From Candidatus Saccharimonadota bacterium (GTDB taxonomy: Bacteria > Patescibacteriota > Saccharimonadia > Saccharimonadales > OFTM59): 64,000 bases of DNA. The first letter of the stretch is position 1, and the number at the start of each line of letters is the position of its first letter. A program made the position numbers and the translations under genes. Positions 18,026-41,905 of the stretch are shown piece by piece. The stretch covers positions 11,978 through 75,977 of the forward strand of contig JAJDCK010000011.1 of assembly GCA_029260855.1 (NCBI GenBank), read 5' to 3'. The notes beneath the pieces are model-generated. The model was not told where the DNA came from and ran no database searches. It worked only from the letters and a program-made list of their open reading frames with translations.

Positions 18026-18102
18026 TGGTCGGGGTGAAAGGATTCGAACCTTCGACCTCGCGGTCCCAAACCGCGCGCGCTAGCCAACTGCGCCACACCC
18101 CG
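18026..18102 (-). tRNA. tRNA-Pro(TGG), CCA encoded
   Basis: The reverse complement CGGGGTGTGGCGCAGTTGGCTAGCGCGCGCGGTTTGGGACCGCGAGGTCGAAGGTTCGAATCCTTTCACCCCGACCA has anticodon stem CGCGG/CCGCG and loop TT-TGG-GA. Confidence 0.92.
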
Positions 18103-18160: not shown

Positions 18161-19219
18161 CTACGGAATCCAGCGCTGGTTAAGGCCGCCGTGGCAATCC
18201 CAAACAATAATTTGTGTTCCGTTTGCTGTTCCTGGGCCAGCGGCGTCAAGGCAACGACCACTAGCGTGTGAAGCAAGAAGCGTGCCGGTACTGTCATCGC
18301 TGCCACCCCATTTCTGGTTTGCCCCGCCGTGGCAATCATAAATCTCAACAGGTGACCTGTTGTGTCCGCCAAATGCCGCGTCTACATCTAAACACTTACC
18401 GCTATGAACTGAGCGCAGCATCCCGCCACTTGCTACCCACTGCTGGTTTGCCCCGCCGTGGCAATCCCATAAGATAACCTGGGTGCCGTTTACGGTGCCC
18501 CAGCCTGAGACGTCAAGGCAACGATTGCCTGCACCAGCCGTTCTTATACGAAACCCCTGGACCTGTGCTGAAGCACTGCCGCTTCCCGGCTGCCCTGCTG
18601 CGCCTGAACTGCTCGTACCCGGGCTGCTGGTTCCCTGCGAACCACTAGTTCCGGTTCCATTACTGCCACTTGAACCGCTGCAACCACTACCTACGCAACT
18701 GCCGCTTCCACCCGCACCGCCAGCTCCGCCGTTTGACGCTTGCTGACCTGCTTGGCCGTTGTTGCCGCCACCGGTTCCGCCCTGAGTGGCACTTTCGTTG
18801 CTAGTCGAACTTTGTTGCTCAGAAGTTTTCAGTGCTTTTAATGCAACTTTGTGACGCGCTTTCATGGCGTCTTCTTCGGCTTCGTTATTGTCTTTCAATA
18901 CCTTGAGTTCATCTTCACAAATGTCTTCCTGACGGCCTGACATGGCGTCACACTGATCATCCTTGGTGTCTTCGGCTACTTCATGCCTGTCCTTTAGCGC
19001 CCTTAGTTCAGCCTTTTGTGTGTCCTTAAGGTTTTTGACAGCTGGGCTCACAGCAAACGAGGGTACAATCAATAAAGTGGCCACAATAGCAAACGCAACG
19101 ATGAACAACCATTTTCTTTGCTGACGGCTAGTAGCAACCTTTTTGGAGCGAGACGACCCAGTACGGTTGTTTGGTTTAGTATTTCTTTTTGCAGTAGTTT
19201 TCTTAGCGGTTTTTGCCAT
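18161..19219 (-). CDS. Membrane-anchored/secreted protein: charged coiled region + Gly/Ser linker + C-terminal ricin B-type (QxW)3 lectin domain
   Basis: Basic N-terminus plus TM (WLFIVAFAIVATLLIV). There are three repeats of CLD...G..V...DCHGG(A/L)NQ(Q/K/R)W. Confidence 0.8.
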   Translation of the reverse strand: MAKTAKKTTAKRNTKPNNRTGSSRSKKVATSRQQRKWLFIVAFAIVATLLIVPSFAVSPAVKNLKDTQKAELRALKDRHEVAEDTKDDQCDAMSGRQEDICEDELKVLKDNNEAEEDAMKARHKVALKALKTSEQQSSTSNESATQGGTGGGNNGQAGQQASNGGAGGAGGSGSCVGSGCSGSSGSNGTGTSGSQGTSSPGTSSSGAAGQPGSGSASAQVQGFRIRTAGAGNRCLDVSGWGTVNGTQVILWDCHGGANQQWVASGGMLRSVHSGKCLDVDAAFGGHNRSPVEIYDCHGGANQKWGGSDDSTGTLLASHASGRCLDAAGPGTANGTQIIVWDCHGGLNQRWIP

Positions 19220-19292
19220 TTAAAAGCCTTTTTATATTACTTATTAGATATTCTTATATAAGTATATAGATGCTTATGCTTAAAGTGTCAAG

Positions 19293-20437
19293 CTAAAGAA
19301 GGCCACTAGCTAACTCCTCGGAGCCACTGCTAAAGTTAGCTATAGTAACATCGCTGTCTAATGGCAGCTGAACAGGAGTTTGTGATTGTGCATGTTTAAG
19401 GTCGGCTGCTAGGTGTTTTTTCGTATACTCACGGTCATTCACGGCGGCCCTATTAGCAACAGTGCTCTGAGCTAACAATACGTTAGTAATTTTACCGTTT
19501 TCGTCGAGTATATAAGCCGTAGCACCGCTGGACCCTGCAAATGGCACGTACGATCTGACACCTTTAACCCACACTCTTTCTTCGCCGTACCCTTTCACGT
19601 CTGTTCCCGGCCCTAAATACACGCCGTGATAAATATTCAATTGTTGATTAGAGTCTACTCTCACTACTAACGCTTGCGACCCAGGCATGGGAGCTTCGCT
19701 ACCTAGTTGGGTTGGCTCAACCTCATCAAGGGCAGGCGATGCGTTCTTAGGCTCTACTAGAAGTAAATCGGCTTTCATGCTGCCTGCGTTTGCGATCATG
19801 GCGCCAGCTTCAGCCACTGGCTGTGTTGGGCTGCCACCCGGCTGGGTAAAGACTATATCCCACTGGGAAGCTTCAGCTAAATTCACTGGCCTTACTGCGA
19901 CATCCGGGCTATCAAACCTATCTAAAAGGCCTGTTGTTTTGCCGGCTTCATCCCTATCAAGGCAGTGGAAGGCGGTGCTGAATACGTTTTGGCTATCACC
20001 CTTTTCGTCGGTAATACGAATGTAGTTGCTAGACAATATGGCGCGTATGCTTCACTTGAGCCTTTTTGCTTCCGCCACAGAACGAAAGTGCTCTGTTTCA
20101 GTTTATCCTCCGGGGTCAGCACTTCTACGCCCTTTTCACGCTGTTCCTTGTTATCTTCTACATGCTTTAGCCCAATATCCGTTAGCGCATCTTCAACAGT
20201 TGTGGTGTAGCCGTTACCTGGGTCAGATAATTCACCAGTATCTATATCACCGCCAGGGTGTGCGGCAGGCTTTTCGCCGCTAAAAGCTTGTACTAAGGGG
20301 TTCATAGAAGCTGCCAATGCAAGCACCAGAGCTATCTGCCCAAGCCGACTCCTTAGGAAACCTGGCTGATGAGGGTTTTGTTGTCTTTCTACTGTTTGTG
20401 GATCGGACATTTGTGTTTCGCCGTCTGTGGCTGTCAT
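19293..20437 (-). pseudogene. Secreted trypsin-like serine protease split into two overlapping frames (19922-20437 signal/N-terminal part; 19293-20051 protease part)
   Basis: The upstream ORF has a signal-like IALVLALAASMNPLVQA. The downstream frame has STAFHCL (His motif) and FAGSSGATAY (Ser motif) but no signal peptide. The two frames overlap at 19922-20051. Confidence 0.5.
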
Positions 20438-20491
20438 GCTAGTATGATAGCATAAGCATGTTGTTATGTCAAATCTGTTATGTGGGTAATT

Positions 20492-22744
20492 TTACCAGGT
20501 GCCCCACTTTTGATTTTTGGCCCCACTGACACAATCCCAGACCTGGAGGTTGGCGCCATTATCTATTTTGTTGTCTTTTACGTCTAAACACCTGCCAGTA
20601 GCAGCCGACCTGATCGTTCCGTCGCTGTTCCACTGCCATCTTTGATGAGAGCCACCGTTACAGTCGTAAATTTGTACATCAGTACCGTTCTTGGTCTTGC
20701 CTCCTTCAACCTCCAAACATAATCCGCTGGCGGCAAGTCGTATAGTTCCATCGGTAGCAAGCCCCCACTTCTGGTTGGTGCCACCGTGACAGTCCCAGAT
20801 CTGTGTGTCTTTACCTGCCTTGATGCCGTCCGCATCCATACATCGGCCGCTGGCGTGACTCCTGATTACATACTGTGCAACTGCGGGGGGTTTATCTGTA
20901 GACGAGGCTGCGCTTGTGGTTGTAGTTTTTCCGTCAGGAGTAGTTGTGGTACAAGTGCCGTTCTTGCAAGACGTCTTAGTAGAGCCACTATAGCTACTGC
21001 CTTGGGATTGACCACCTATAGAGACTCCGCCCTGTGAACCCTTGGAGCCTTGCTGGCCACTTGTGCCTGAGGTGCCCGATGAGCCCTGCGCGCCTGATGC
21101 TCCTGGTGAACCAGGGGAACCTTGGGTAGCAGTACCTGGATTACTTGTTCCTGGTTGGCCTGGGGTGCTTGTTCCTGATTGACCAGGCTTACAGCCCCCG
21201 GTACAAGCGCCTGAGCCACCGGCTCCTCCATCACCACCCACCGTGTTGTTGCCAGTAGCTGTACCACCAGCACCACCTTGACCACCGGTCCCTTGCCCGA
21301 TGCTAGCCCCTGCTTGACCAGGTGTTCCCGGTTGAGGAGGTTTTACAATAATTGCATTTGGATCATAATCACCCCCTATCCCGCCTGGGCGAGGTACGAC
21401 TTTTGGTCCTAGATCAGCAACCGCGCCTGTGTCTAGAGGGTCGACATTGAGGAACATTTTATCGTGCATAACAACCCACATATCACGGGTAACAACCCCG
21501 CTACAGCCGGAATAGGTTGCTGCGGTACATTTTGCTGTACTAAACAAATCTTTATTTTCAAATTTAAACTTCTTTACAGCTAATTCTGTACCTAGGCCAA
21601 AAATTCCGTCAATGCGTGTTTCGCGGTCAGGTCCAAGCTCAGGGCCGTAACCAAGATCTTGCAGATGGGCTTGTATGTGTTCAACGCATAAACCTTTTTC
21701 ACCCCTCTTCCACTCTTCTCTGTGACACTCCACTTGGGTTACTATCGTAGGAGGCGGACCACCTGTGACTGGCGTACTTGAGCCACCACCCCCACAACTA
21801 CGATAATGGGGTGCTGGGTCTTGTAGTATATTGCCCTTTCTCATTTCAAAATGTAAGTGAGAACCCGTGACAGCGCCACTAGAATCAGTGTAGCCTAGAA
21901 GTTGACCGGCTGTCACGTTAGGATTAGCGAGAACTTTTGGATTTATCCGCAGTAAGTGTGCGTATTTAAAGTTATAGCTGCTACCGTTTAAGTCTATCTG
22001 GAGACCGTATCCGCTCGTATCGCTCACCCTGCCTGATATAGAAACTCTACCGCTCTGCGCAGCATATATGCCGTCGCCATCTCCAGCAGCTATATCAATC
22101 CCGTGGTGCGCTTTTTTACTACCAGTTATGGGATGTGGCCTAGGATCGGTGTGAAAAACCCTGGTAATTCCACGAGACTTGCTGATTGGACAGTGTATGG
22201 ATGCGTTGACGCTGGCGATTACTAAAGGCGCTTCGTCACCGAACGACGGTCCATTTTTGAGACTGCCCCCAGGATATGCCCAGCAAGCTACACTCGCTGG
22301 ATCCGCTATCCAATGACTCTTCCCTGATCCATTGTTGAAAATTTCTGCAAATCTCGCATCTTGAACATCCCTTGGGGCACTTTTAGCGGTAGGATATCCA
22401 CGATAGTTACCCCATGTACCATTTATAAACTGGTAAGCGCCACTCGCGGTTGAGAATGAGCTTTGAGCTGTATAATCTTCACTGCCGTAGGTACCATCAC
22501 CGCTTTCGCAAGCCCGAATTCGAGGTGCCATAAAGCCGGTGTTATTGTTCGCGGCGTGGCTAGTATCACTAGAGGCATAGCTTGTTATAAGCATAACCGT
22601 GCCGACAACTGCAAAGCCTGTCACAAAAAGAATCATAACCTGTTTTTTGTCTCGTAATTTAAAAACTCTTTTCATGAGACCCCTGGAAGCCGGTGGCCTT
22701 ACGTATGATTTCTTGGCAGAAGTTTTTTTACCCATTTGATTCAT
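20492..22744 (-). CDS. Multidomain cell-wall hydrolase/lectin: TM anchor, Rpf-like transglycosylase domain, M23 peptidase, PG_binding_1 domain, Gly-rich linker, ricin B lectin
   Basis: ACESGDG...GAYQF..TW (transglycosylase-like); HHGID...GSHLHFE (M23 HxxxD/HxH); LQDLGYGP...DGIFGLGTELAVKKF (PG binding); three C..D....(W/Y)DC.(G/S)G..Q(K/R)W lectin repeats at the C-terminus. Confidence 0.85.
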   Translation of the reverse strand: MNQMGKKTSAKKSYVRPPASRGLMKRVFKLRDKKQVMILFVTGFAVVGTVMLITSYASSDTSHAANNNTGFMAPRIRACESGDGTYGSEDYTAQSSFSTASGAYQFINGTWGNYRGYPTAKSAPRDVQDARFAEIFNNGSGKSHWIADPASVACWAYPGGSLKNGPSFGDEAPLVIASVNASIHCPISKSRGITRVFHTDPRPHPITGSKKAHHGIDIAAGDGDGIYAAQSGRVSISGRVSDTSGYGLQIDLNGSSYNFKYAHLLRINPKVLANPNVTAGQLLGYTDSSGAVTGSHLHFEMRKGNILQDPAPHYRSCGGGGSSTPVTGGPPPTIVTQVECHREEWKRGEKGLCVEHIQAHLQDLGYGPELGPDRETRIDGIFGLGTELAVKKFKFENKDLFSTAKCTAATYSGCSGVVTRDMWVVMHDKMFLNVDPLDTGAVADLGPKVVPRPGGIGGDYDPNAIIVKPPQPGTPGQAGASIGQGTGGQGGAGGTATGNNTVGGDGGAGGSGACTGGCKPGQSGTSTPGQPGTSNPGTATQGSPGSPGASGAQGSSGTSGTSGQQGSKGSQGGVSIGGQSQGSSYSGSTKTSCKNGTCTTTTPDGKTTTTSAASSTDKPPAVAQYVIRSHASGRCMDADGIKAGKDTQIWDCHGGTNQKWGLATDGTIRLAASGLCLEVEGGKTKNGTDVQIYDCNGGSHQRWQWNSDGTIRSAATGRCLDVKDNKIDNGANLQVWDCVSGAKNQKWGTW

Positions 22745-22788
22745 ATCAATCTCGGTTTACGTTTATCATGTTCTTTAAGTATCCTGTT

Positions 22789-23430
22789 TTACTCATCATG
22801 ACCATGGGCCTCTTCTGGCACCTCTGGATACCCAAACTCTTCATCGCAACAATAGTCTATAGCATCAGGATCTTCAATTACTTGATCTAACTGGAATCTG
22901 TTTATCTCTTCATTAGTTGGGTTCTTGGGAACAGGTAAACATGGAGCCCCTTTGATGGTGCCTGCTGGTTTCCAGCATTCCATAGTACTTTTCCATCGAG
23001 TACTACCGGTGGCGGGATCGTTCCAGTCGGTGGTAAACTTATCGTTTTGCACAACTGCGGGAGCTAGTCGAGCTTCACTAAAGCCACCAAAATTATTCCA
23101 TTCCTTTATATTATAATTAAAAGCCCCGCTGCGTGAACCTTCTCCCTTTGCCTCATAATCCCCTTGGCCCCATATACCCTGACCGGTTTCACACGCGATA
23201 ACTCTAACAATCCAGTAGTCTGCATTGCCGAAATAACGTGGCTTAGCGGCTGCGAACGAAGAAGTGACTAAATAGGTACCGATAAGAGCAACTCCTATCA
23301 CAAAAATTAACTTAACTCTTTGCTTACCGTTTCTATTCATTCCGCGGAACCAGTTTTTGATAAAGCCTCGTTGATTATTGCTCCGGCTAGTCGCTCTTGT
23401 GTTGCTCCGCTTCAGTGTTTTCTTTTTCAT
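22789..23430 (-). CDS. Membrane-anchored protein with divergent Rpf-like transglycosylase domain
   Basis: Basic N-terminus plus TM; IACETGQG...SGAFNYNIKEW. Confidence 0.6.
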   Translation of the reverse strand: MKKKTLKRSNTRATSRSNNQRGFIKNWFRGMNRNGKQRVKLIFVIGVALIGTYLVTSSFAAAKPRYFGNADYWIVRVIACETGQGIWGQGDYEAKGEGSRSGAFNYNIKEWNNFGGFSEARLAPAVVQNDKFTTDWNDPATGSTRWKSTMECWKPAGTIKGAPCLPVPKNPTNEEINRFQLDQVIEDPDAIDYCCDEEFGYPEVPEEAHGHDE

Positions 23431-23441
23431 AATTTTTAGGC

Positions 23442-24035
23442 TTACTCTGCTTCCTGTTCATAGGCGCAGGAGCTACCTAGACCTAGTTCACTCGCGCTAG
23501 GTGCGGGAGTCTGGGCAACAGGAGTTTTGTCGTTGCTAGGTGCCGGCGATTGCGCAGGAGCTATTGATTGATTTTGGGGGGTAGTCGGTTTTTCTGATTG
23601 ATTGGCCTGATCGGGCGCGTCAGATTCTTCCGCAGCAGCAGACTGTGTGTTGACATCACCGAACAGTGATGAGTCAGGTAGGGTCAGTTTGACCTCTTCT
23701 GGAGGAGCAGGCAAGTTGACGGGTTGTATCCATTCTGGGTTGTCTTTTTTTCTACTAACTATGAAGTTGAGACGGCTAAACGTATCGTTTACTCTTAGCC
23801 CAACGCGCTCGCGGAGGCTGTCGCCTCGTGAATCAAGTGTTTTTCGGTCTAAATTTTCTCCGTAATTAACTGGCGCGAATGCAGTCACGACTAGATAAAT
23901 ACCAATCAACCCTAAGGCAAACACCAGAACTGAAGCAAGCTGTGATTTACGTGAATGCCGTAGGCGTAGTATGAACTTTTCAGATACACTGTTTTGTTGC
24001 TTGGCCATTCTTTTCCTGGTAGTTTTCTTTTTCAT
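23442..24035 (-). CDS. Membrane-anchored protein with Pro/Ala/Gln/Ser-rich tail
   Basis: Basic N-terminus plus TM (LASVLVFALGLIGIYLVVTAFA), then a low-complexity C-terminal half. Confidence 0.6.
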   Translation of the reverse strand: MKKKTTRKRMAKQQNSVSEKFILRLRHSRKSQLASVLVFALGLIGIYLVVTAFAPVNYGENLDRKTLDSRGDSLRERVGLRVNDTFSRLNFIVSRKKDNPEWIQPVNLPAPPEEVKLTLPDSSLFGDVNTQSAAAEESDAPDQANQSEKPTTPQNQSIAPAQSPAPSNDKTPVAQTPAPSASELGLGSSCAYEQEAE

Positions 24036-24135
24036 ACGTACAAACTGTCCCTGTGGTAGTTTGTTATTTTTAACGAGCCTGTGTTCAGTTGTACGCGCTT
24101 ATGTTTTATATGTCAAGGTTGGAAGAAGTGAGGTG

Positions 24136-24591
24136 CTAGCGACTTATAGAACCGCTCGGGGCACTAGGTGCGCTTGGAGAAGTCGACGACCCTGACTGCC
24201 CTGGAACACTTGGAGAGCCGGATGTACCCGGGGTGCCTGGTGCGCTTGAGCCGGGTGCGCCGCTACCAGGAGCACCCGAAGAGCCGGTACCTGGACTACC
24301 AGAGCTACCCCCGCAGCCACTGCCGGTACAACTGCTGCTACCACCCGCGCCACCCGCACCTCCGTTAGCCCCAGGCTGACCAGAACTGCCATTATTAGAG
24401 TTCGGGGGACACAAGCTAGCAGCCAATACGCTTACTACAAAGTACAAGCCAATTAGTGCAAAAGTGGCTACAAAAAGTGCTTTTCTGGGTGAATTTTTAA
24501 GGTTTGCGATAAAACTCATCGTACCTTTTCCTGGTCTTTTAGAGGTTTTACTACGATTAGGTGCTGCTTTTCTTATAGTTTTTTTAGTCAT
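24136..24591 (-). CDS. Membrane-anchored Gly/Ser/Pro-rich protein
   Basis: Basic N-terminus plus TM; NGGAGGAGGSSSCTGSGCGGSSGS motif is shared with the 18161 and 20492 genes. Confidence 0.6.
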   Translation of the reverse strand: MTKKTIRKAAPNRSKTSKRPGKGTMSFIANLKNSPRKALFVATFALIGLYFVVSVLAASLCPPNSNNGSSGQPGANGGAGGAGGSSSCTGSGCGGSSGSPGTGSSGAPGSGAPGSSAPGTPGTSGSPSVPGQSGSSTSPSAPSAPSGSISR

Positions 24592-24592
24592 T

Positions 24593-25366
24593 TTATAGCC
24601 CCAACCAGCCAGATACCCTAGTGTTAAATGTCTGAACTACGGCCAGCACCCCTCCGGTCTTGGGGCAAAAGATACTGCTATCGCCAGTACCACTTGTCGT
24701 GCTGGAGCTACCACCGGTACCAGCAGAGTCACTGTCGCTTGATCCTTGATTGCTTGAGCCAGAGTTGCTGCTACCAGAGCTGCCGCTAACGCCCGTGCCG
24801 AATTGTCCGGACTGTCCTGTGCCCGTGCCAAGCCCGCCTACACCACCCTGACCGCCACCTGTTCCACTTCCCGCTTGACCGGCTGGTCCGCTTGAACCGG
24901 CGCTATCACTAGAGCCCTGCCCGGTTTGGCCGCTTGCTGTCGTACCAGCTGAGCCGCTTGATCCTTGATTGCTTGAGCCAGGGTTGCTGCTACCAGCGCT
25001 GCCGCTAGCGCCCGTGCCGTCGCTGCCCACCGCACCGCTGCCAGTCCCTATGCCATCCGCACCATCCTGCCCGTTCGCGTCCGTTTGTGATGCACCAGTG
25101 TTTTGGTTAATACCAGCTAAGCTGTTGAAGAAACCACCTACGCGTTCTTGAAACGTAAGGTTTTGGTCTGCGTCACCCCCTATCAATGTATTGCCGCGAC
25201 TTGCTGAACGGTAAGCTGACACTGAAGAAGCTATTAGGTAGAATCCAACCACAGCTACTGTAAGCATGATCAATGGAGCCTTGCTACTGGAGCCTCGCCA
25301 GTTGTCTAGCAAACTTTTTGAGCTAGTGGGGTTTTTTGTTGTCTTGCGTATGTTTGTGTTTTTCAT
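24593..25366 (-). CDS. Membrane-anchored Gly/Ser-rich protein with internal duplication
   Basis: Basic N-terminus plus TM. A 65-nt near-identical repeat lies at 24736-24800 and 24955-25019 (period 219 nt). Confidence 0.6.
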   Translation of the reverse strand: MKNTNIRKTTKNPTSSKSLLDNWRGSSSKAPLIMLTVAVVGFYLIASSVSAYRSASRGNTLIGGDADQNLTFQERVGGFFNSLAGINQNTGASQTDANGQDGADGIGTGSGAVGSDGTGASGSAGSSNPGSSNQGSSGSAGTTASGQTGQGSSDSAGSSGPAGQAGSGTGGGQGGVGGLGTGTGQSGQFGTGVSGSSGSSNSGSSNQGSSDSDSAGTGGSSSTTSGTGDSSIFCPKTGGVLAVVQTFNTRVSGWLGL

Positions 25367-25388
25367 TTATCCCAATACCGCCCTGAGG

Positions 25389-25994
25389 TTATTGGCACGA
25401 ATTACCGTTACTGCCGGAGGTGCCACTTGCGCCATTACTACCGCCAGCACCCCCCGAGGCACCCGCGCTACTACTACTGTTACTACCGCTGCCGCTTGCA
25501 CCCGAGCTGCCGGTACCGCTTGAGCCGTTGCTGCCGGAGCTACTACCAGACCCTGGAGCACCATCATGTCCTTGGTTGTTTATGTGTGTAGCGACAGTGC
25601 TAACTCCACACACATTACTTTGCGCTTTGTTTTGTCTCTTAAATGAGTCTTTCAGATTGTCATAGACGTCATCATTGCGGTTTTTCAGGTCTTTCAACTG
25701 GTCCTTACAGGTCCTCTCGGCTGCCCGGTTTTCAATTTGTTTACATTGAGCTTTCTTAGCGTCTTCGGTATTCTCATGCTGTTGCTTGAGGATTGTAAGC
25801 TGGCTTTTTTGGGCGTTAGTTAGAGAAGCTGCTTCCGAGGTTACGGCCAAAATGCTGCCGAGCGCTGCAAAAAGCAGCACCAAAACTAATATGCGTTGTT
25901 TGCTGGATAAAGCCCGGAGTTTGCCCATTATCCCCTGGGCGGGTTTACTAGCTGCTCTAGTTTTTCGGGCGGTTGAAACTTTTGATTTTGGCAT
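25389..25994 (-). CDS. Membrane-anchored protein: charged Cys-containing helical region + Gly/Ser tail; paralogue of the N-terminal half of 18161-19219
   Basis: LTILKQQHENTEDAKKAQCKQIENRAAERTCKDQLKDLKNRND compares with LRALKDRHEVAEDTKDDQCDAMSGRQEDICEDELKVLKDNNE. Confidence 0.6.
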   Translation of the reverse strand: MPKSKVSTARKTRAASKPAQGIMGKLRALSSKQRILVLVLLFAALGSILAVTSEAASLTNAQKSQLTILKQQHENTEDAKKAQCKQIENRAAERTCKDQLKDLKNRNDDVYDNLKDSFKRQNKAQSNVCGVSTVATHINNQGHDGAPGSGSSSGSNGSSGTGSSGASGSGSNSSSSAGASGGAGGSNGASGTSGSNGNSCQ

Positions 25995-26113
25995 TATATT
26001 TCCCTTATTTTTGTTTTTGTTAACTTACCGTATAAACATAAGCTTATTCCGAATATACCTACTGTGTCAACTCAATAGCTCGCATTTTATAACCGGACTA
26101 GGTAGGTTGCTTG

Positions 26114-26536
26114 CTAAATTGATTTACAGGTTTTAATGCCATTTTTAGTTGTGCAGACAGTCCCTGTAGCAGGAGCGCCGGGAGCACTTGGTGCACTAGG
26201 AGCGCTTGATTTCCCTGGTGCGCCGGGAGCACTGGAACTGCCGTCCGCACCACGACTACCAGGCGCAGTTTTGACATCTTCACCTTGGCCAGGCGCACCT
26301 GGCTGGCCGACGGCATCTTTGCCTGGTGTACCGTTACAATTGTTGTTATTATTGCTGCTGGCAACGCAGGTGTTGTCCGTACCGGTGGCTCCGTCTGCTC
26401 CCTTACTATTCAGTCCTTCGGGTGGAGGGCATAGTGCAAGCGCGCCAATCACTAGTAGCGTACCGGCCGCCGCAAAGGTCAGGATGAATAATGCTTTCTT
26501 GGGTGAGCGCTTTATCCAGACCCCTAAACGCTGCAT
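26114..26536 (-). CDS. Membrane-anchored Gly/Pro/Ser/Ala-rich Cys-containing protein
   Basis: TM (ALFILTFAAAGTLLVIGALALC), low-complexity body, and a C-terminal CTTKNGIKTC motif. The start overlaps the ymdB stop by 13 nt. Confidence 0.55.
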   Translation of the reverse strand: MQRLGVWIKRSPKKALFILTFAAAGTLLVIGALALCPPPEGLNSKGADGATGTDNTCVASSNNNNNCNGTPGKDAVGQPGAPGQGEDVKTAPGSRGADGSSSAPGAPGKSSAPSAPSAPGAPATGTVCTTKNGIKTCKSI

Positions 26537-27339
26537 AAGGCCGCTGGAATAATCTGATTTATGTGCTGGATTGAGGTTGCGCTGTGAGAGCTATTTGATG
26601 TGATTAGGGTGGCGTTGAACTGCAGAGGGCCGTCGGTTTCTAGCTGGTTACGGCTGGGGTGACCATCATACCAGCGTTTTGTAGTTACAGATAATTTAAC
26701 ACCAAGGCTGGAGTGCAACGTTCCGCACATACCGACATCTGTTATGTGCGCTGTACCTTTTGGCAAAATCATAGCGTCTGCGGTTGGGACATGCCAATGA
26801 TCTCCAATGACTGCAGTGACTCGTCCGTCCAAGTAATAGCCGATCATGCGTTTTTCGCTACTGAAGTCCCCGTGAAAATTTACAATCGTTGCGTCTCGCT
26901 GGACATCTTCATTCTCTAGCAGAATTTGATCAACGATTTTCAACGGATTATTCATAGGGTCTTCTGCTTTTTTACCAACAATACTGCCTCTTAAGCTAAT
27001 TACCAGTACGCTACCCGTAGCGGTTTCAATGTATTTCCACCCCAACCCTGGTGTGCCTTCAGGGTAATTAGCCGGCCGAATTACAGGCTGGCTAGGGTCG
27101 TCCAGATAGTCATAAATCTCTGGTAGGTGCATAGACCAGTCCCCCCCTGTGCAAAAATCCACGCCCAGCCTCAACAATCTGTCAAGGTCCGTCCTTGACA
27201 GACCCTTGCCGTTCGTGGTGTTTTCGGCTTGGGCAATCACTAGATCTGGCTTGTACTGTTTTCTCACTTCGGGCAATACGCAACTTACAGCCTCAATACC
27301 GGGCTCTCCCATTATGTCCCCTACGTAAAGAATGTTCAT
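26524..27339 (-). CDS. ymdB: YmdB-family metallophosphoesterase (2',3'-cyclic-nucleotide phosphodiesterase)
   Basis: MNILYVGDIMGEPG...VIAQAENTTNGKGL...NFHGDFSSEK...GDHWHVPTAD. It has the conserved position downstream of rny. Confidence 0.85.
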   Translation of the reverse strand: MNILYVGDIMGEPGIEAVSCVLPEVRKQYKPDLVIAQAENTTNGKGLSRTDLDRLLRLGVDFCTGGDWSMHLPEIYDYLDDPSQPVIRPANYPEGTPGLGWKYIETATGSVLVISLRGSIVGKKAEDPMNNPLKIVDQILLENEDVQRDATIVNFHGDFSSEKRMIGYYLDGRVTAVIGDHWHVPTADAMILPKGTAHITDVGMCGTLHSSLGVKLSVTTKRWYDGHPSRNQLETDGPLQFNATLITSNSSHSATSIQHINQIIPAALCSV

Positions 27340-27499
27340 AAGTTAATTGTAACTGACTATTTAGCTGACAAATAATGTTGGTTGTGCTGCAAGACAAGCG
27401 AGTGGCTCCGTTCGAACCTTGTCTGTAAGCGCTCTTCAAGGAATCGACTGTAAGCAATTTCTCGGCTGAAAAGCGCCTGTAACGATAAGACTACAAACT

Positions 27500-29014
27500 C
27501 TATTTGGCGAACTCTATCGCGCGGGTTTCGCGGATGACGTTAATCTTAATCGTACCTGGGTACTGCATGGTAGATTCAATCTTAGTCGCTACGTCACGAG
27601 CCAGTTTAATAGCACCTAAATCATCAATATCTGTCGGTTTAACAAAGATGCGAACCTCGCGACCCGCACTGATTGCGTAGGCTTTTTCAATCCCATTAAA
27701 TCCTAGTGCTACGTTTTCTAGGTCTTTCATGCGCTCTGCAAAGTTTTCTGCTGAGATATTGCGCGCACCAGGGCGGGCAGCGCTCATGGCGTCAACTACA
27801 CGTACTATGTGCGCTTCAGTTGTGTTGGCATCCACGTCATCATGATGAGCCTCAACAGCATGACAAATCTCTTCTGGTACACCGTATTTGCGCAGCATAT
27901 CGGCACCGATATGATGATGCTTGCCTTCTATTTTGTGCGTCAGGGCTTTGCCGATGTCGTGAACCAGCGTAGCATATTTGACAACCTTAACGTTTGACCC
28001 TAATTCCTCAGCAATAATCCCAGCCATGTGTGCCATTTCGGTACTGTGCTTAAGAACGTTCTGGCCATAAGATGTGCGAAACTTTAATTCACCAAGCAGC
28101 TGCAAGACTTCTTTGGGGATACCGATAATACCGACTTCACGGGCGGCGTCTTCGCCAGCGCGAACAACTTCTTTTTGCACTACAGCTTGTGCCTTCTCAA
28201 CGACTTCTTCAATACGTCCTGGGTGAACTCGACCGTCTTTAAGAAGCATTTCAAGCGCCTGGCGCGCTACCTCACGTCGAACAGGGTCAAAAGAACTCAG
28301 TATGATCATGCCTGGAGTGTCGTCAACCATAATGTCTACGCCAGTGGCGCGCTGTAGGGCCTGGATATTGCGACCCTCTTTGCCGATGATCCGACCCTTC
28401 ATTTCTTCGTCTTCTAGCTTGACAGCTGTGACGGTACGCTCAGCTGTCACCTCGCTGGCCATGCGCTCCATCGCCTCAACAATAATTACTGCGCCCTTTT
28501 CTTCGGCGGTTTCGCGGGCTTCATTCTCGAGCTTTGATATAAGCCCAAGGAGATCTTGGCGGATATCGCGTTCGGTCATCTGCATCAGCTTGCCTGCTGC
28601 ATCTTCCTTGGTCAGCTTTGCGATTTTTTCTAACTTATCCTGCTGTTTAGTACGGATAGAACGAATCTCATCTTTCAGCTGTTCTGATTCGGTTTCGCTG
28701 GAGCGCAGCTTTTCTGCACGCTTATCCAGATCATCTAGTTTTTTATCCAAAGATAACTCGCGGTCAAGAAGCCGCTGCTCAATCTCTTTAATCTCCTTAC
28801 GGCGAGAAGTCTCTTCCTGCCGTGCCTTGTCAGATAATTTTGCTGCTTCTTCGCGGGCTTCATCCAGAGCCTTTTCGCCCTCTTTTTTGGCCTTCTTCAG
28901 TTCTTTCTCTACAGCTTCTGCAGCTGAGCCTATCTTGTTTTTAGTAATGACATTATTGGCAGCAAAGCCAGCACCTACGCCGACCAATGCCAGCACAATG
29001 GTAATTGGATCCAT
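27500..29014 (-). CDS. rny: Ribonuclease Y
   Basis: N-terminal TM, coiled coil, KH domain (GRIIGKEGRNIQALQRATGVD) and HD domain (HSTEMAHMAG...LVHDIGK). I prefer the ATG at 29014 (AAGGA RBS) over the track start at 29056. Confidence 0.92.
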   Translation of the reverse strand: MDPITIVLALVGVGAGFAANNVITKNKIGSAAEAVEKELKKAKKEGEKALDEAREEAAKLSDKARQEETSRRKEIKEIEQRLLDRELSLDKKLDDLDKRAEKLRSSETESEQLKDEIRSIRTKQQDKLEKIAKLTKEDAAGKLMQMTERDIRQDLLGLISKLENEARETAEEKGAVIIVEAMERMASEVTAERTVTAVKLEDEEMKGRIIGKEGRNIQALQRATGVDIMVDDTPGMIILSSFDPVRREVARQALEMLLKDGRVHPGRIEEVVEKAQAVVQKEVVRAGEDAAREVGIIGIPKEVLQLLGELKFRTSYGQNVLKHSTEMAHMAGIIAEELGSNVKVVKYATLVHDIGKALTHKIEGKHHHIGADMLRKYGVPEEICHAVEAHHDDVDANTTEAHIVRVVDAMSAARPGARNISAENFAERMKDLENVALGFNGIEKAYAISAGREVRIFVKPTDIDDLGAIKLARDVATKIESTMQYPGTIKINVIRETRAIEFAK

Positions 29015-29210
29015 GATTGTTCCTTTCAGCCCACAGTAAGCCGACATCACTATCACTTCTTTAGCCGTACTTTACCGTAGAAAATCAAAAATTAAATTGT
29101 AAGAATTGTGGTACTTCATGTACCGACGGATTTTGCTCCCAAAAAGCTGCATAATCCTACGCCTAACTATACGCGGATTTAGTTATCTAGGTCAATCAAT
29201 ATGTCTGTTC

Positions 29211-30182
29211 CTAGTTATTCGCTGGCGTCGATGAGTTCTTCTGGATGGCGTAGACCACCAAGCGCTTGTTGTAGGAGTTGGATTTGGTATCATAGGCGCC
29301 CGTCTCCGTAACCAGATTCAGTCCTGGTACGCCAGGCACGGCTGTTGCCAGCATAGGCTCCAGAGGATCAACGTCCCTAAAGGCCTGGAGTTTTGCCACA
29401 TAATATATGTACGTTTTGCCATCACCAGTCTCCAACCTAATCTCATCGCCTGGCTTAAGCTCTGCTAAATCGTGGAAGATCCCGGGCTTACTCGGGCCAG
29501 ACGCGTGGCCAGTCAAAACAACTGCGCCCACCTCCCCCGGCTTGACACTACCTTCATACCAGCCTGCGTCGTATATATTTGATGGCAGCCTGATTTCTGT
29601 TTCGGTGCCGACACCTACTCTGCGAACTCGGGCTGAAAGGCCCATATCATCAATATGAAATATGCGAGGCAAATTACCAGCGACCTGGTAGCTTTGTATG
29701 TTGGTAGGGCGACGTTCAGTAATTTCATTACCGTTATCAATCATCGGCTCTATGCTCGCCCTGCTGTAGGACCGGTTTGCCTCCGCATGATTACCTGAAC
29801 GTAAACTACTAAACCCAGCGACAGAGATAAACAGTATTAAAGCCAAACAAATTACTGGTAAGTAGGCCTTTACTGGAACAAGCTTCGGAGATACCGGACC
29901 CAATAAGTGGCCGAGTTTAATGCCGAAGATATTATCGGGACCATTGGCTTCAGTGGGTAGCCTAGAAATACCAGACGACAGCCTAGCTGATCCTCGCACC
30001 AACGGTTCTAAGGGCTCGCCCTGCTTTGTCGCTAGATGTTTTGCAGAGCGCTCGCTTATACCTTCAATACTGCGCGCTTGTATGCGTGGAACCGGCCGCC
30101 GATAGTAAGGTAGCTGCTTACCGCCAGGCAGATGCTGTGTGTTATTGAATAACCTATTGGTGATTGGCCGTTTTGGCGCCAT
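29211..30182 (-). CDS. Sortase-fold protein with the catalytic Cys replaced by Glu
   Basis: PGEVGAVVLTGHAS...F..L..LKPGDEI...YIYYV...LNLVTETGAYD...NKRLVVYA is collinear with sortase His / TLxTC / Arg motifs. The TLxTC position reads LVTET (GAG codon). Confidence 0.65.
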   Translation of the reverse strand: MAPKRPITNRLFNNTQHLPGGKQLPYYRRPVPRIQARSIEGISERSAKHLATKQGEPLEPLVRGSARLSSGISRLPTEANGPDNIFGIKLGHLLGPVSPKLVPVKAYLPVICLALILFISVAGFSSLRSGNHAEANRSYSRASIEPMIDNGNEITERRPTNIQSYQVAGNLPRIFHIDDMGLSARVRRVGVGTETEIRLPSNIYDAGWYEGSVKPGEVGAVVLTGHASGPSKPGIFHDLAELKPGDEIRLETGDGKTYIYYVAKLQAFRDVDPLEPMLATAVPGVPGLNLVTETGAYDTKSNSYNKRLVVYAIQKNSSTPANN

Positions 30183-33872: not shown

Positions 33873-35627
33873 ATGCGAGTTTCTGATGCCTTTGTTGAGC
33901 AACTATTAAAAAAATCCGGCAAGGTCAATGACCAACAGCTGGCGGATTTACGTGAGCAAGAAAAAAATGAGAAGAAACCCCTACAAGACCTAGCGGTCGC
34001 ATCCAACCTAATCTCTGAAGCCGAGCTCACAAAGGCATACGCAGAAGAGATTGACGTACCTTTCGTTGAGATAGACACAAAGGCATTGTCAAAGGAACTT
34101 CTACACTTGGTCCCCGAACGTATAGCCAGACAGTACCGCGCTATTTTGTACGGAATCGATAAGGGCGGCAACAAACAACTGGCAATGGCCGACCCCGATG
34201 ACGTCCAAGCAATCAGCTTCTTACAAAAGCAGCTAGGCTCGGGCTTAAGAATTTACGTTGCTACACAGTCAAATATCTTGGCGGCACTTGACCAGTACCG
34301 CGGCAACATCGGTACAGAAATTAGTAAAGTAGCTTCGGAGAGCGACAGTGATAGCGAAGGAGACGAAGAGGTTAGTGAAGAGGACCTCGCCGAGGACTCG
34401 CCCATCGCCCAGACAGTCAACCTAATCATTGAATATGCGGTTAATTCTGGTGCAAGTGATATACACATTGAACCCCGTGAAAAGTTCGTACAGATTCGCT
34501 ACCGCGTAGACGGTGTTCTGCGCGAAGCCAACAAGCTCCCTAAAAGGACTCTGGCAGCGATGGTCTCTCGCATAAAGATTCTGTCTGGTCTGAAGATTGA
34601 CGAACGGCGGGTGCCGCAGGATGGTCGCTTCAAGCTCAACATGAATGGCCGAATATTTGCCTTTCGCGTCTCAACCCTCCCCGTAACTGAAGGCGAAAAG
34701 GTCGTCATGCGTGTACTAGACGAATCCAGTGACCCGTTGACGCTAGAAAAACTCGGCTTCTGGGGGCTTGCTCTAGAAAATATTCAGTCAGCAATCAAGC
34801 AGCCACACGGTATGGTTTTAGTAACCGGACCTACGGGTTCAGGTAAGTCCACCACGCTTCACAGTGTGCTTAATATTCTAAACCGACCGGATGTCAATAT
34901 TTCTACAGTTGAAGACCCGGTTGAGTACCGGCTAGAAGGCGTTAACCAGACTCAGACCAATAATACTGCTGGTATGACCTTTGTTAACGGGCTGCGGGCC
35001 CTACTTAGGCAGGACCCTAATGTGATCATGGTCGGGGAGATCCGCGACGGCGAGACAGCCGGACTAGCTGTACAGGCTGCCCTAACAGGGCACCTGGTGT
35101 TTTCAACTTTGCACACCAACAATGCCGCCACCTGCCTTCCTCGACTCCTTGATATGAGTATAGAGCCGTTTCTTATAGCTTCAACGGTGAGAGTTGTAAT
35201 CGGACAAAGGCTAGTCAGGCGCCTGGTCCCTGAGGAGTGTGAACAATACACACCGGACGATAAAGAACGCAAAGAAATTGAACGAGCTTTTGCCGTTAAG
35301 TCAAACGAAGACTGGAAGCGGATACTTGACCTTGCTGCTGAAGCCCAGACCACATTTGACAGGCCAAAAAGCAATAAGCTTACCTTCTGGCGACCCAAAA
35401 AAGATCTAAGCGAAGGACACACCGGTTACAGAGGACGAATGGGGATTTATGAGGTCCTTAGCGTGTCGACGGAAATACAAAAGATGATAGTAACAAATGC
35501 CACCAGCGAGCAGATCCAGGATGCAGCAGTTAAAGAAGGTATGGCTACCATGCAGCTTGACGGGCTGATCAAGGCCATGCTTGGTATGACTTCAATAGAA
35601 GAAATATTAAGAGTAACGAGGGAGTAG
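33873..35627 (+). CDS. pilB: Type IV pilus assembly ATPase (GspE/PilB family)
   Basis: T2SSE N-terminal domain, Walker A VTGPTGSGKSTTL, Asp/His boxes, and GEIRD. Confidence 0.92.
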   Translation: MRVSDAFVEQLLKKSGKVNDQQLADLREQEKNEKKPLQDLAVASNLISEAELTKAYAEEIDVPFVEIDTKALSKELLHLVPERIARQYRAILYGIDKGGNKQLAMADPDDVQAISFLQKQLGSGLRIYVATQSNILAALDQYRGNIGTEISKVASESDSDSEGDEEVSEEDLAEDSPIAQTVNLIIEYAVNSGASDIHIEPREKFVQIRYRVDGVLREANKLPKRTLAAMVSRIKILSGLKIDERRVPQDGRFKLNMNGRIFAFRVSTLPVTEGEKVVMRVLDESSDPLTLEKLGFWGLALENIQSAIKQPHGMVLVTGPTGSGKSTTLHSVLNILNRPDVNISTVEDPVEYRLEGVNQTQTNNTAGMTFVNGLRALLRQDPNVIMVGEIRDGETAGLAVQAALTGHLVFSTLHTNNAATCLPRLLDMSIEPFLIASTVRVVIGQRLVRRLVPEECEQYTPDDKERKEIERAFAVKSNEDWKRILDLAAEAQTTFDRPKSNKLTFWRPKKDLSEGHTGYRGRMGIYEVLSVSTEIQKMIVTNATSEQIQDAAVKEGMATMQLDGLIKAMLGMTSIEEILRVTRE

Positions 35628-35628
35628 G

Positions 35629-36849
35629 ATGCCGACATTTAACTACACCGCAATCGACAAAACAGGCAAACGTGTAGCAGGCACGACTGAGGCAGCGAGC
35701 GCCGCTGTTGCAACCGCCAACCTTAAGTTACGCGAGCTAAGGCCAGTTGAAGTCAAGCCAGCAAACGGTAGCCTGATGAGTAAGATACCGTTTGGGCCAG
35801 GAAAACAAAAAGTTAAGTCTAAAGACCTCGTTGTTTTTACCCGGCAACTTGCAACTATGATCAACGCTGGCGTGCCCCTGGTAAGATCCCTGGCAACCCT
35901 TCAGGCTCAAACTGAGAATCCGAACCTCAAGCACCACATCGTAGATGTTACAAAAGAGGTCGAGGGCGGGGCAACTTTCGCTGATGCACTGGAAAAACAT
36001 TCTGCGGTATTTTCGCCAATTTACATAAACATGGTCCGGGCCGGGGAAGCCGGAGGTATCCTGGATGAAATCCTAAAGAAACTGGCCACACAACAAGAAA
36101 AGGATGAGAAGATCAAGGGCAAGTTCAAGAGCGCCATGACCTATCCTGTAATTTTGCTGAGTATTACTACGCTGGTCTTTTTGGCGTTGATGGTCATTGT
36201 TATGCCAAAGATCGGCAAGATTATCCAAGACCTAGCTGGTCCGGAAGCTCAACTTCCACCCTTAACCCAGGTCATGCTTGGTATAAGTGGCTTCATGGTG
36301 AGCAGATGGTATGTGTTGGTTGGTGGCGGCTTTATTATTGCCTTCTTTTTGGCCAGATCGCTTCGCACGCCGGCGGGTCGCCGAAAAAGAGACCAGCTAT
36401 TACTTAAACTGCCGGTAGTAAAAACAATTGTTATTAAAGTTGCGGTTGCCCGATTCGCTCGTATCTTTGCCTCTTTAATGAGCGCTGGTGTCGCTGTTAT
36501 TGACTCAATTGAGGTGACAGCCAAGGCTGTCGGCAATAGCGTTATTGAAGAAGAGCTTAAATCTGCCTCAAAGACTGTTGCAAACGGAAAACAATTATCT
36601 ATTCCGATCACTGAGAGTAAGGTGTTCCCGCCTATTGTGGGACAGATGCTATCCGTGGGCGAAGAAACAGGCAAAACAGATGAGATCCTAGTCAAGGTAG
36701 CCGAGTTTTACGAAGAAGAGGTGGACGCCGTTGTAGATAGCCTAAGCTCAATCCTGGAGCCGATTATGATTGTAGTCATGGGTACAATGGTGGGCCTAAT
36801 TGCAGCTAGCGTGATCGGACCGATAAGCAATCTTTCCAACCAGATTTAA
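35629..36849 (+). CDS. pilC: Type IV pilus platform protein (GspF/PilC family)
   Basis: Duplicated T2SSF domains (FTRQLATMINAGVPL / FARIFASLMSAGVAV). Confidence 0.9.
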   Translation: MPTFNYTAIDKTGKRVAGTTEAASAAVATANLKLRELRPVEVKPANGSLMSKIPFGPGKQKVKSKDLVVFTRQLATMINAGVPLVRSLATLQAQTENPNLKHHIVDVTKEVEGGATFADALEKHSAVFSPIYINMVRAGEAGGILDEILKKLATQQEKDEKIKGKFKSAMTYPVILLSITTLVFLALMVIVMPKIGKIIQDLAGPEAQLPPLTQVMLGISGFMVSRWYVLVGGGFIIAFFLARSLRTPAGRRKRDQLLLKLPVVKTIVIKVAVARFARIFASLMSAGVAVIDSIEVTAKAVGNSVIEEELKSASKTVANGKQLSIPITESKVFPPIVGQMLSVGEETGKTDEILVKVAEFYEEEVDAVVDSLSSILEPIMIVVMGTMVGLIAASVIGPISNLSNQI

Positions 36850-37015
36850 AACACCGCCTGAAGGCTACGACTTGTATTGGTGGGGTCGTCACACCTAGTA
36901 CTCGTAGGGAAAAGTATTGCACGAGATGAAACTTGTGATAATGTATAACCATAAGCTGTAAAAAGCTTGAAATACTAATTCACAATTCACTAAATAAGAA
37001 GGGTGGGCATATTAA

Positions 37016-37519
37016 ATGTTCAAGGCACTTAAAAAAGCACAAGAAGGCTTCACGATTATCGAACTTTTGATCGTAATCGCGATTATTGCCGTTTTAGCAG
37101 GACTCGTACTTAACAACTTCCAAGGCGCACAAGCCAAGGCTCGTGACTCACAGCGCCTCACTGACATCAACAACGTACACAGTAAACTAGAAGAGTTTTA
37201 CAACGAGAAGGGTTTCTACCCTGATACTTTTGATGCAGATGATTTCCCTGGTATTGATGAAAACAGCCTGCTTGACCCGGACGGTAATCTCATAGTCATC
37301 AGCTCACCAGTGACTGACGAAGCTGCCGCTGAAGCTGCAGCAGCACCGGGCAGTATAAATGAATACGTTTACATACCGTTCCCCGCCAGCTGTACAACTG
37401 CAGCCGAAAGCTGTGAGGGTTACGTCCTAAAGACATACATTGAAAAGCCAACAGGCTCTACAACAAACCCATATATCAAGAAGGGCTTGAACAATCCTAC
37501 ACCTACTCCAACTCCATAG
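37016..37519 (+). CDS. pilA: Major type IV pilin (prepilin)
   Basis: Leader MFKALKKAQEG / FTIIELLIVIAIIAVLAG gives G-1, F+1 and E+5. It has its own terminator. Confidence 0.9.
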   Translation: MFKALKKAQEGFTIIELLIVIAIIAVLAGLVLNNFQGAQAKARDSQRLTDINNVHSKLEEFYNEKGFYPDTFDADDFPGIDENSLLDPDGNLIVISSPVTDEAAAEAAAAPGSINEYVYIPFPASCTTAAESCEGYVLKTYIEKPTGSTTNPYIKKGLNNPTPTPTP

Positions 37520-37544
37520 TTTAGGTTTGTAGAAAACTTTCCAA

Positions 37545-37585
37545 AGAACCCTGCCCAGTTTAAATGGCAGGGTTCTTTCTTTATT
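37545..37585 (+). terminator. Rho-independent terminator after the pilin gene
   Basis: AGAACCCTGCC-cagtttaaat-GGCAGGGTTCT followed by a T-rich tail. Confidence 0.8.
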
Positions 37586-37622
37586 GGTTATGCTATAATT
37601 CCCTCAAGTAGAGTGGGCCTTA

Positions 37623-40826: not shown

Positions 40827-40837
40827 TAGACAGCAAT

Positions 40838-41904: not shown

Positions 41905-41905
41905 A

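Follow-up and report, generated by a model that had tools for sequence, protein, structure and literature searches.

A nine-gene block of putative exoproteins between ymdB and tRNA-Pro in uncultured Saccharibacteria

We analyzed 64,000 nucleotides of contig JAJDCK010000011.1 (Candidatus Saccharimonadota bacterium, assembly GCA_029260855.1), a stretch referred to here as the window, and describe an 8.4-kb island at 18161-26536 that consists of nine consecutive minus-strand open reading frames (ORFs), G1 to G9. Intergenic gaps run from -13 to 119 nt, and the start of G1 overlaps the stop of ymdB by 13 nt, an overlap that an initial annotation made from the DNA letters had noted. Read along the minus strand, the order is sortase gene, rny, ymdB, island, and tRNA-Pro(TGG) (Table 1). 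The island is probably transcribed as one or a few operons. Immediately 5' of G8 is the region's best match to a sigma-70-like promoter, which scores 11/12, includes an extended -10 TG, and suggests an internal transcription start.

The source lineage belongs to environmental Saccharimonadales, with a YmdB that is 58 to 78% identical to the YmdB of 80 Saccharibacteria species known from metagenome-assembled genomes (MAGs). A Logan contig (L001, from SRR15505513) matches the window at 99.97% identity over 9.4 kb, and an indel in G8 is their sole difference within the island. The other island-bearing loci used for comparison were that of MAG OFTM59 (L003), which is the closest relative and the one to which the divergence values given below refer, and L083 and L002. 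Protein families were called with Pfam and NCBIfam (hits listed to E ≤ 0.1) and with PHROGs, applying curated cut-offs. Homologs were sought in 5.8 billion proteins or, for the leader profile discussed below, in 1.84 billion representative proteins.

Domains and leaders of the island products

Proteins G7 and G9 both end in a ricin-type lectin domain that lies far above the cut-off of 29 bits for PF00652 or PF14200 (G7, residues 625 to 747, PF00652, E = 5.8e-32, 111 bits; G9, residues 223 to 350, E = 1.4e-27, 96.8 bits). Each domain carries three QxW motifs spaced 43 to 46 residues apart (QKW658, QRW701, and QKW745 in G7; QQW259, QKW302, and QRW348 in G9), and the subdomains are detectable as repeats even at the DNA level. 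Glycan binding is predicted from this domain match. G7 also contains an M23 endopeptidase domain (residues 212 to 310, PF01551, E = 1.2e-18, 67.6 bits against a cut-off of 28.7) in which the zinc ligands are intact, with HxxxD (HHGID) at 213 and HxH (HLH) at 296, and both motifs are kept in the L003 and L002 orthologs. The initial annotation had named these lectin and endopeptidase domains, and both assignments are borne out. It had also listed a peptidoglycan-binding domain, for which the case is mixed. The PG_binding_1 (PF01471) match in G7 is sub-threshold, at 21.7 bits against a cut-off of 23 (E = 2.3e-4), but the family is recorded, weakly, in the L083 ortholog of G7 and also in a G9-like protein of L002.

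The same annotation had proposed two Rpf-like domains, and here the evidence is indirect, although it leads to the same conclusion. PF06737 gave no direct Pfam match to G6 or G7 at E ≤ 0.1, and a profile built from four island-type Rpf domains alone did not reach the Rpf chains in the PDB. In the search of 5.8 billion proteins, however, the island-type profile matched two proteins, P0136 and P0137, at 5e-14 and 1e-12, and these pass the PF06737 cut-off of 27 bits with 42 and 47 bits. Once one PF06737 member was added to the profile, RpfC was matched at 2e-6. The Glu of CE[ST]G and the motif GAYQ[FY]..W are invariant among these domains (CETG at residue 80 in G6, CESG at residue 79 in G7), and a 5- to 6-residue insert follows CESG. 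An AlphaFold2 (AF2) model of the G6 domain has a predicted local distance difference test (pLDDT) score of 81.7. Its 12 best Foldseek matches in the PDB are all RpfB, RpfE, or RpfC, with probabilities of 0.89 to 1.0, a template modeling (TM) score to target of up to 0.77, and a root mean square deviation of 2.2 Å, although their E values are only 0.02 to 0.5; lysozymes and MltF come next. On this profile and model evidence, we accept the G6 domain and the G7 N terminus as divergent Rpf-type transglycosylase domains, and the products of both genes are predicted to be muralytic. NCBIfam matches to VirB10 and SclB (E = 0.057 and 3e-7, far below their cut-offs) were set aside as low-complexity artifacts.

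G8 had been described as a split trypsin-like protease. The split is explained by a single missing A at about 20025, where the window reads GCAA-CTAC and L001 reads GCAAACTAC; the L001 frame stays open through this position to the end of its contig, and restoring the base in the window yields a single frame of 381 residues. The frameshift is either an assembly error or a strain-level pseudogene. The trypsin-like assignment is tentative. The window protein has no match in Pfam, NCBIfam, or a PDB profile search, and an AF2 model built from a two-sequence alignment was unusable (pLDDT 35.2). However, five homologs with 18 to 41% identity have just 10 invariant columns, which include H46, D112, and S192-G193, and the His-Asp-Ser succession is in chymotrypsin order. 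In the L002 ortholog, Trypsin_2 (PF13365) aligns over nearly the full model at a sub-threshold 19.3 bits against a cut-off of 27.6 (E = 0.002). In a chance-level match of G8 to neuropsin (E = 0.54), the invariant Asp falls on a D-I-M-L stretch, which we take to be the catalytic-Asp motif of trypsin-family proteases. G8 is thus a candidate and probable serine protease.

The remaining products, G1 to G5, had been grouped as five proteins of mostly low complexity. This description suits G1, G3, and G4, of which 60 to 67% is low complexity, but not G2 (36%) or G5 (27%); G2, G5, G7, and G9 together span 22 to 36%. Several of these proteins are tied to one another or to relatives by small conserved elements. 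The C-terminal CxxxxGxKTC motif of G1 is shared with a G4-like gene of L083, the tail of G4, ending in ...SAPSAPSGSISR, matches the tail of the PF06737 protein that closes the L002 island, and the C-terminal tail of G3 is kept in L003 and L083. G5 has orthologs in L002, L003, and L083 at 42 to 51% identity. The two-Cys helical domain of G2 is paralogous to the N-terminal domain of G9 and has no relative in Pfam or in the PDB, including by PDB profile search. We count G5, the G2/G9 helical domain, and the G8 family as orphan families that are new here. Within the Gly/Ser-rich part of G3, two 65-nt direct repeats lie 219 nt apart and are 95% identical, which indicates a recent internal duplication of 219 nt.

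A shared leader links most of these otherwise different proteins. Eight of the nine island proteins, and their relatives, align over some 58 N-terminal residues, the exception being G8. The leader begins with MxK and about 20 polar or basic residues, continues through a motif of the type G[FL][IM]xx[LW][RK]xSxK into a hydrophobic segment of 20 residues centered on a Gly, and closes with a small-x-Ala end. In the alignment these ends read SFA, SYA, AFA, VLA, VSA, or SEA and are preceded by Ser, Thr, or Pro. The initial annotation had given every product a long basic start, which is accurate for G2 to G7 and G9, whose N-regions comprise 31 to 40 residues with a net charge of +6 to +14. It does not extend to G1, in which the N-region has only 14 residues (the L003 ortholog has a full-length leader), or to G8, in which an N-region of net charge -1 belongs to a signal-like segment of its own that is not basic. 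Among G5 orthologs, the sequence RHSRK in the leader N-region is invariant, which an ordinary signal peptide would not usually show. Models of YSIRK-type and KxYKxGKxW-type signal peptides in Pfam and NCBIfam matched no island protein at E ≤ 0.1.

The products had also been described as anchored. Because the leaders end in a small-x-Ala motif, cleaved Sec signal peptides appear at least as likely as membrane anchors, and we favor leader cleavage followed by release or noncovalent surface retention over permanent anchoring. Two other modes of attachment were considered. A lipoprotein reading of the LC that follows the leaders of G1 and G4 was set aside, as position -1 is Leu and by eye does not fit a canonical lipobox. 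A sortase-substrate reading was rejected: there is no canonical LPXTG signal in the island proteins, only G3 has CPKTG, and its 19-residue C-terminal tail is weakly hydrophobic (Kyte-Doolittle value 1.03) and lacks a K/R tail. It is also worth recording that a sorting-signal-like motif, [LF]CP[KR]T[GNT]G plus about 19 residues, ends G3, its orthologs, and a BSP-type peptidase of L003, although the hydrophobic span and basic tail usual in sorting signals are missing.

A hidden Markov model (HMM) of the leader matched eight of the nine island genes and no other ORF of the window, so that leader-bearing genes are clustered far beyond chance. In 1.3 Mb of other Saccharibacteria loci, its matches were almost confined to island loci, the exceptions being L015 and, as weak matches, L004 and L024. 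When the eight leaders of the window were searched as a profile against the representative proteins, there were 17 matches, 16 of them at the extreme N terminus, and the 14 leader-matching sequences that were retrieved are island-type proteins or carry Rpf-type or unassigned cargo. A few other Saccharibacteria (L004, L009, and L040) sporadically carry leaders built along similar lines, so the leader type may extend beyond the reach of the HMM. Two leader-bearing proteins of relatives are encoded outside an island, at L084 3562-5028 and L086 559-1821. One of them joins a G6-type Rpf domain to a domain of about 300 residues without a Pfam match, from a gene between ftsK and rpsF, and the other has a canonical PF06737 domain and two repeated beta-rich domains.

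Table 1. Features of the island and of its surroundings (positions are those of the window)
Feature	Position	Strand	Content
Sortase gene	29211-30182	-	PF04203 at 1e-16; directly upstream of rny
rny	27500-29056	-	
ymdB	26524-27339	-	Upstream island boundary; PF13277 on identical Logan gene; 77-78% identical to YmdB of MAG OFTM59
G1, 140 aa	26114-26536	-	Short leader, Gly/Ser/Pro/Ala-rich, 4 Cys
G2, 201 aa	25389-25994	-	Leader, two-Cys helical domain, Gly/Ser tail
G3, 257 aa	24593-25366	-	Leader, 155-aa Gly/Ser/Thr-rich region, CPKTG-plus-19-aa C-terminal tail
G3 direct repeat, 65 nt	24736-24800 and 24955-25019		
G4, 151 aa	24136-24591	-	Leader, LCPP motif, Gly/Ser/Pro region with CxGxGC loop; G1 paralog
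G5, 197 aa	23442-24035	-	Leader with RHSRK, conserved domain of ~70 aa, acidic/Pro-rich tail ending CxYE
G6, 213 aa	22789-23430	-	Leader, divergent Rpf-type domain (22936-23244), acidic tail
G7, 750 aa	20492-22744	-	Parts in the next six rows
G7 leader	22574-22744	-	
G7 Rpf-type domain	22235-22567	-	
G7 M23 domain	21794-22189	-	
G7 PG_binding_1-like module	21554-21718	-	
G7 Gly/Ser/Thr linker	20873-21364	-	
G7 ricin lectin domain	20495-20872	-	
Promoter-like site	20472-20444	-	Sigma-70-like
G8, candidate serine protease	19293-20437	-	Frameshifted in window
G9, 352 aa	18161-19219	-	Parts in the next four rows
G9 leader	19052-19219	-	
G9 two-Cys helical domain	18845-19051	-	
G9 Gly/Ser linker	18554-18844	-	With CxGSGC loop
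G9 ricin lectin domain	18164-18553	-	
tRNA-Pro(TGG)	18026-18102	-	Downstream island boundary
Type IV pilus cluster	33873-43351	+	pilB-like, pilC-like, class-III-signal pilin, pilM/N/O-like, three minor-pilin-like
Ser/Thr protein kinase	688-2757		
LOOT RNA	3804-3915	-	Rfam RF03000, 65.8 bits (gathering score 46.4)
Large serine recombinase	4317-5906	+	Resolvase and Recombinase domains
tRNA-Lys(CTT)	5849-5925	-	Overlapped by 3' end of recombinase gene
Fusion protein, 505 aa	14796-16313	+	N-terminal HTH_3, EPSP-synthase-fold (MurA-like) enzyme
Orphan, 453 aa	55868-57229	-	Basic N terminus, one hydrophobic segment

Occurrence in relatives and surroundings of the island

In about 45 of 70 informative Saccharibacteria loci, ymdB and tRNA-Pro are separated by 20 to 140 nt, a spacer that is filled here by the whole island. 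Of the 80 related species, 78 lack the island at this locus. Where it is present, gene order is kept: G2 to G9 recur in order in L003 and L083 and partially in L002, with modules shuffled. L003 has ymdB, a leader-bearing BSP-type peptidase, and then G1 through G9; L083 runs from ymdB through G2 to G9 and includes a G4/G1 hybrid; and L002 retains G5, G6, G7, G8, and G9 together with a canonical PF06737 protein. The Rpf module of G7 is found in G7 only in the window, where it is fused to M23, and is absent from the G7 orthologs of L002, L003, and L083. In L002, the Rpf module sits instead on a G9-like protein with PG_binding_1 and ricin domains. By the Rosetta-stone argument, such alternative fusions point to island genes that act together.

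The island proteins have diverged faster than their neighbors, with 46 to 81% identity to L003 compared to 67 to 94% for flanking proteins, and synonymous sites are saturated at this level of protein identity. In L003, a very divergent subtype takes the place of the window type of G8. Conservation is highest in the ricin domains, at 84% (G7) and 93% (G9), above the 77% of YmdB. G7 and G8 each have one close homolog among the 5.8 billion proteins searched. Scans of metagenomes with the G5 and G6 family alignments found no relatives, which is weak evidence of rarity given that these scans were pattern-limited, and a genome-collection scan with the Rpf-type alignment found nothing with degenerate patterns that would also miss the L003 ortholog present there. 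The island is accessory rather than core and is specific to its clade, and its carriers are a small group of uncultured soil-type Saccharibacteria, a narrow lineage. The initial annotation had itself counted absence of the cluster from relatives with the same lifestyle against its reading, and the cluster is accordingly no general device of episymbionts.

The spacer itself is a recurrent insertion hotspot, as other lineages (L003 to L082 were surveyed) hold unrelated inserts between ymdB and tRNA-Pro. The most frequent, present in at least 12 species, is an insert of about 2 kb encoding, on the opposite strand, a protein of about 520 residues with a GGVYVKFLQGVL motif (ABC1/UbiB-like by eye), and some others have 3- to 5-kb inserts with unrelated genes. 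The spacer of L015 holds a two-gene mini-version of the island that includes a protein composed of leader, CAP, and ricin domains.

A number of other features of the window can be noted. About 7 kb upstream of the island lies a type IV pilus cluster, the gene names of which rest on N-terminal sequence and conservation with L003 only. Near the opposite end of the window, a large serine recombinase gene and tRNA-Lys(CTT) overlap, and an integrated element may have its border in this region. A LOOT RNA, a Ser/Thr protein kinase gene, and an HTH_3 fusion to a MurA-like enzyme were also found, as was an orphan gene in a kilobase with a local GC content of 0.525, the product of which matches neither Pfam nor the island-leader HMM.

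Proposed function and competing explanations

Taken together, the domains, leaders, and distribution lead us to read the island as a clade-specific, chromosomally resident accessory exoprotein block in the ymdB-tRNA-Pro spacer, which would serve extracellular peptidoglycan cleavage and glycan targeting. We consider this reading modestly probable. A paralog-rich set of proteins would be exported via Sec and have its leaders cleaved, after which the Rpf-type domains of G6 and G7 would cut glycan strands and the M23 domain of G7 would cut peptide cross-links. Targeting to the substrate would fall to the PG_binding_1-like module and to the two ricin lectins, each carried at the end of a Gly/Ser/Thr linker of 100 to 160 residues, and the probable serine protease G8 and the mostly disordered Cys-loop Gly/Ser/Pro proteins G1, G3, and G4 would be further products. 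The functional inventory drawn up in the initial annotation, which combined glycan binding, two peptidoglycan-cleaving activities, and long disordered linkers, all on exported products, thus stands as a prediction from domains and leaders.

As to what is cleaved, the most likely target would be a different, host bacterium's wall or its wall glycans, although our confidence in this falls a little short of even. The host wall is favored because the island is accessory and fast-evolving, because its lectins are strongly conserved, and because of the known biology of Saccharibacteria. Wall polysaccharides and arabinogalactan of the host govern Saccharibacteria-host interactions and set susceptibility (bioRxiv 10.64898/2026.09.08.750141; PMC11880426), and glycan-binding envelope proteins are essential in Southlakia epibionticum (PMC10633639). 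Earlier papers (PMC8080830; PMC10633639) have proposed that epibionts of the candidate phyla radiation (CPR) act on hosts through secreted peptidoglycan hydrolases and glycan-binding surface proteins. The surface apparatus for opening another cell's wall that had originally been suggested is upheld in part: the accessory nature, fast divergence, and conserved lectins fit dealings with another cell, but the evidence indicates a co-located set of exoproteins and not an assembled apparatus.

Several points weigh against this reading. The sequence evidence does not discriminate between a foreign wall and the cell's own, and Gram-positive-type bacteria routinely apply M23 and Rpf/Sps-type enzymes with wall-binding modules to their own wall. 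The overlap between G1 and ymdB suggests coexpression with housekeeping genes. The protease assignment of G8 is unproven, and the contig L084, which comes from the sample of L002, encodes a leader-bearing protein away from the island. Our view of the genome is the 64-kb window, and any autolysins or leader proteins elsewhere in the genome would lie outside it. Finally, the families may be rare in databases partly because sampling is poor and divergence fast.

A first competing explanation is a self-directed locus of autolysins and wall proteins. The Rpf-type and M23 enzymes would then remodel the cell's own peptidoglycan as it grows and divides, held on its own wall glycopolymers by the ricin and PG-binding modules, and the Gly/Ser/Pro proteins would be wall-associated and structural. 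M23, Rpf/Sps, and PG_binding_1 are classical families of self-wall remodeling, G1 overlaps ymdB downstream of rny in a manner that suggests cotranscription with housekeeping genes, a sortase gene is adjacent, and the G+C content at third codon positions (GC3) is native-like. However, the island proteins lack canonical sortase signals, diverge faster than the flanks, and have shuffled modules, and the absence of the island from its locus in nearly all of the related species, together with the extreme rarity of its families, rules it out as core division machinery. We regard a self-directed role as possible but rather doubtful. Less likely again is nutrient scavenging, in which secreted, lectin-tagged muralytic enzymes and a protease would digest the wall debris and proteins of dead neighbors and feed an auxotrophic cell with amino sugars and amino acids. 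A ricin (CBM13) domain on a Gly/Ser/Thr linker does resemble secreted polymer-degrading enzymes, and the same locus encodes the leader-CAP-ricin protein in L015 and the leader-bearing BSP-type peptidase in L003. The use of necromass has been proposed for soil Saccharibacteria (PMC6031116). Against this, the island contains no genes for uptake or catabolism of muropeptides or amino sugars, half of its genes encode nonenzymatic, disordered, or unassigned proteins, and bulk degradation is not a known role of Rpf-type domains.

Alternatively, the island might be the remnant of a mobile element or a prophage lysis module integrated beside tRNA-Pro, which we consider very improbable. It does adjoin a tRNA gene in a spacer where other lineages carry other insertions, and phage endolysin and tape-measure families are among the matches of its M23 domain. 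Yet the PHROGs matches to phage families come only via the generic M23 and ricin domains, and all products have secretion leaders, which is not the logic of a holin/endolysin pair. No integrase, recombinase, structural, or replication gene was recognized on reading the nine products or in the Pfam, NCBIfam, and PHROGs scans. There is no tRNA-end repeat, and no 11-mer is common to the tRNA region and 18171-30000. GC3 is 0.375 to 0.49, and the flanks have 0.466 ± 0.05. From species to species the genes stay in order, their divergence scales with that of the flanks, and no relative was found in a pattern-limited scan of viral contigs.

Returning to the exoprotein reading, a bolder version can be imagined in which the leader is a dedicated sorting signal, similar in function to YSIRK/GS or accessory-Sec leaders, that routes the muralytic, lectin, and disordered proteins as a coevolving set to one site of the episymbiont, such as the host-contact pole, where the lectins would recognize actinobacterial wall glycans and the Rpf-type and M23 domains would open the host sacculus locally. 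We think this quite improbable. Rpf-type enzymes are growth and resuscitation factors in Actinobacteria, and if the idea were true, they could let the parasite manipulate the growth state of its host.

Significance and comparison with known systems

Cultivated Saccharibacteria live on Actinobacteria, and, type IV pili aside, we know of almost no molecules that recognize or breach the host envelope. The island offers a compact candidate set for host interaction, comprising two lectins, the ligand of which could reveal the host glycan, a putative bifunctional wall cutter, and a leader that can be searched for and marks additional proteins of this exported family. In addition, the ymdB-tRNA-Pro hotspot could be used to seek accessory genes that are particular to individual lineages of other Saccharibacteria. 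A narrow, uncultured clade and well-known building blocks limit the impact. The M23, Rpf, and ricin families and the concept of wall hydrolases secreted by epibionts are not new. What is new is a block of nine contiguous genes, kept in order, at a defined insertion hotspot, the Rpf-M23-PG_binding_1-ricin fusion, the orphan families, and the shared extended leader. In agreement with the initial annotation, which knew of no such unit, we found no description of one in the literature on Saccharibacteria that concerns ricin with peptidoglycan, Rpf, or M23 with lytic transglycosylase.

Of the systems to which the island can be compared, the YSIRK-G/S and KxYKxGKxW extended signal peptides resemble its leader by eye, with a long N-region and a conserved basic motif before the hydrophobic core (RHSRKSQLxS in G5) that are common to a class of surface proteins. 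The island motif differs, however, no model matches it, and no accessory Sec genes were seen, so membership in either class is unsupported. Among enzymes, mycobacterial RpfB/RpfE-RipA likewise combines glycan cleavage by an Rpf-type domain with an endopeptidase for cross-links; the G6 model matches RpfB, RpfE, and RpfC, and the catalytic Glu of CE[ST]G is kept. In the island, however, the endopeptidase is M23 instead of NlpC/P60 and is fused to the Rpf domain in G7, ricin lectins and the leader are added, and the Rpf domain, with its insert after CESG, is too divergent for PF06737. RpfB/RpfE-RipA serves self-growth and resuscitation in actinobacteria, so that both the host organism and the role differ from those of the island.

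Secreted enzymes of the lysostaphin/LytM type, which have a C-terminal domain for wall targeting, share with G7 an exported M23 domain with HxxxD/HxH and a separate targeting module that possibly sets specificity. G7, in contrast, would target via ricin and PG_binding_1-like modules and not SH3b, has a 160-residue Gly/Ser/Thr linker and an extra Rpf domain, and no immunity gene was recognized at the island. Hydrolases of the PrgK/CwlT type (lytic transglycosylase plus endopeptidase), which belong to conjugation or type IV secretion systems (T4SS) of monoderms, also join glycan-strand- and peptide-cleaving domains in one exported chain for local wall opening, but they use NlpC/P60-CHAP where G7 uses M23, and the lectins are particular to the island; no T4SS genes lie beside it among the ORFs read or scanned. 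The same logic has been proposed for the CPR epibionts Vampirococcus lugosii (PMC8080830) and S. epibionticum (PMC10633639), whose predicted exported wall hydrolases and glycan binders would likewise be aimed at the host envelope. Their genes are scattered and encode other domains (VCBS, dockerin, FN3, and DD-endopeptidases), whereas the genes described here form one contiguous set of nine with a shared leader and ricin and Rpf-type domains, confined to a single small clade.

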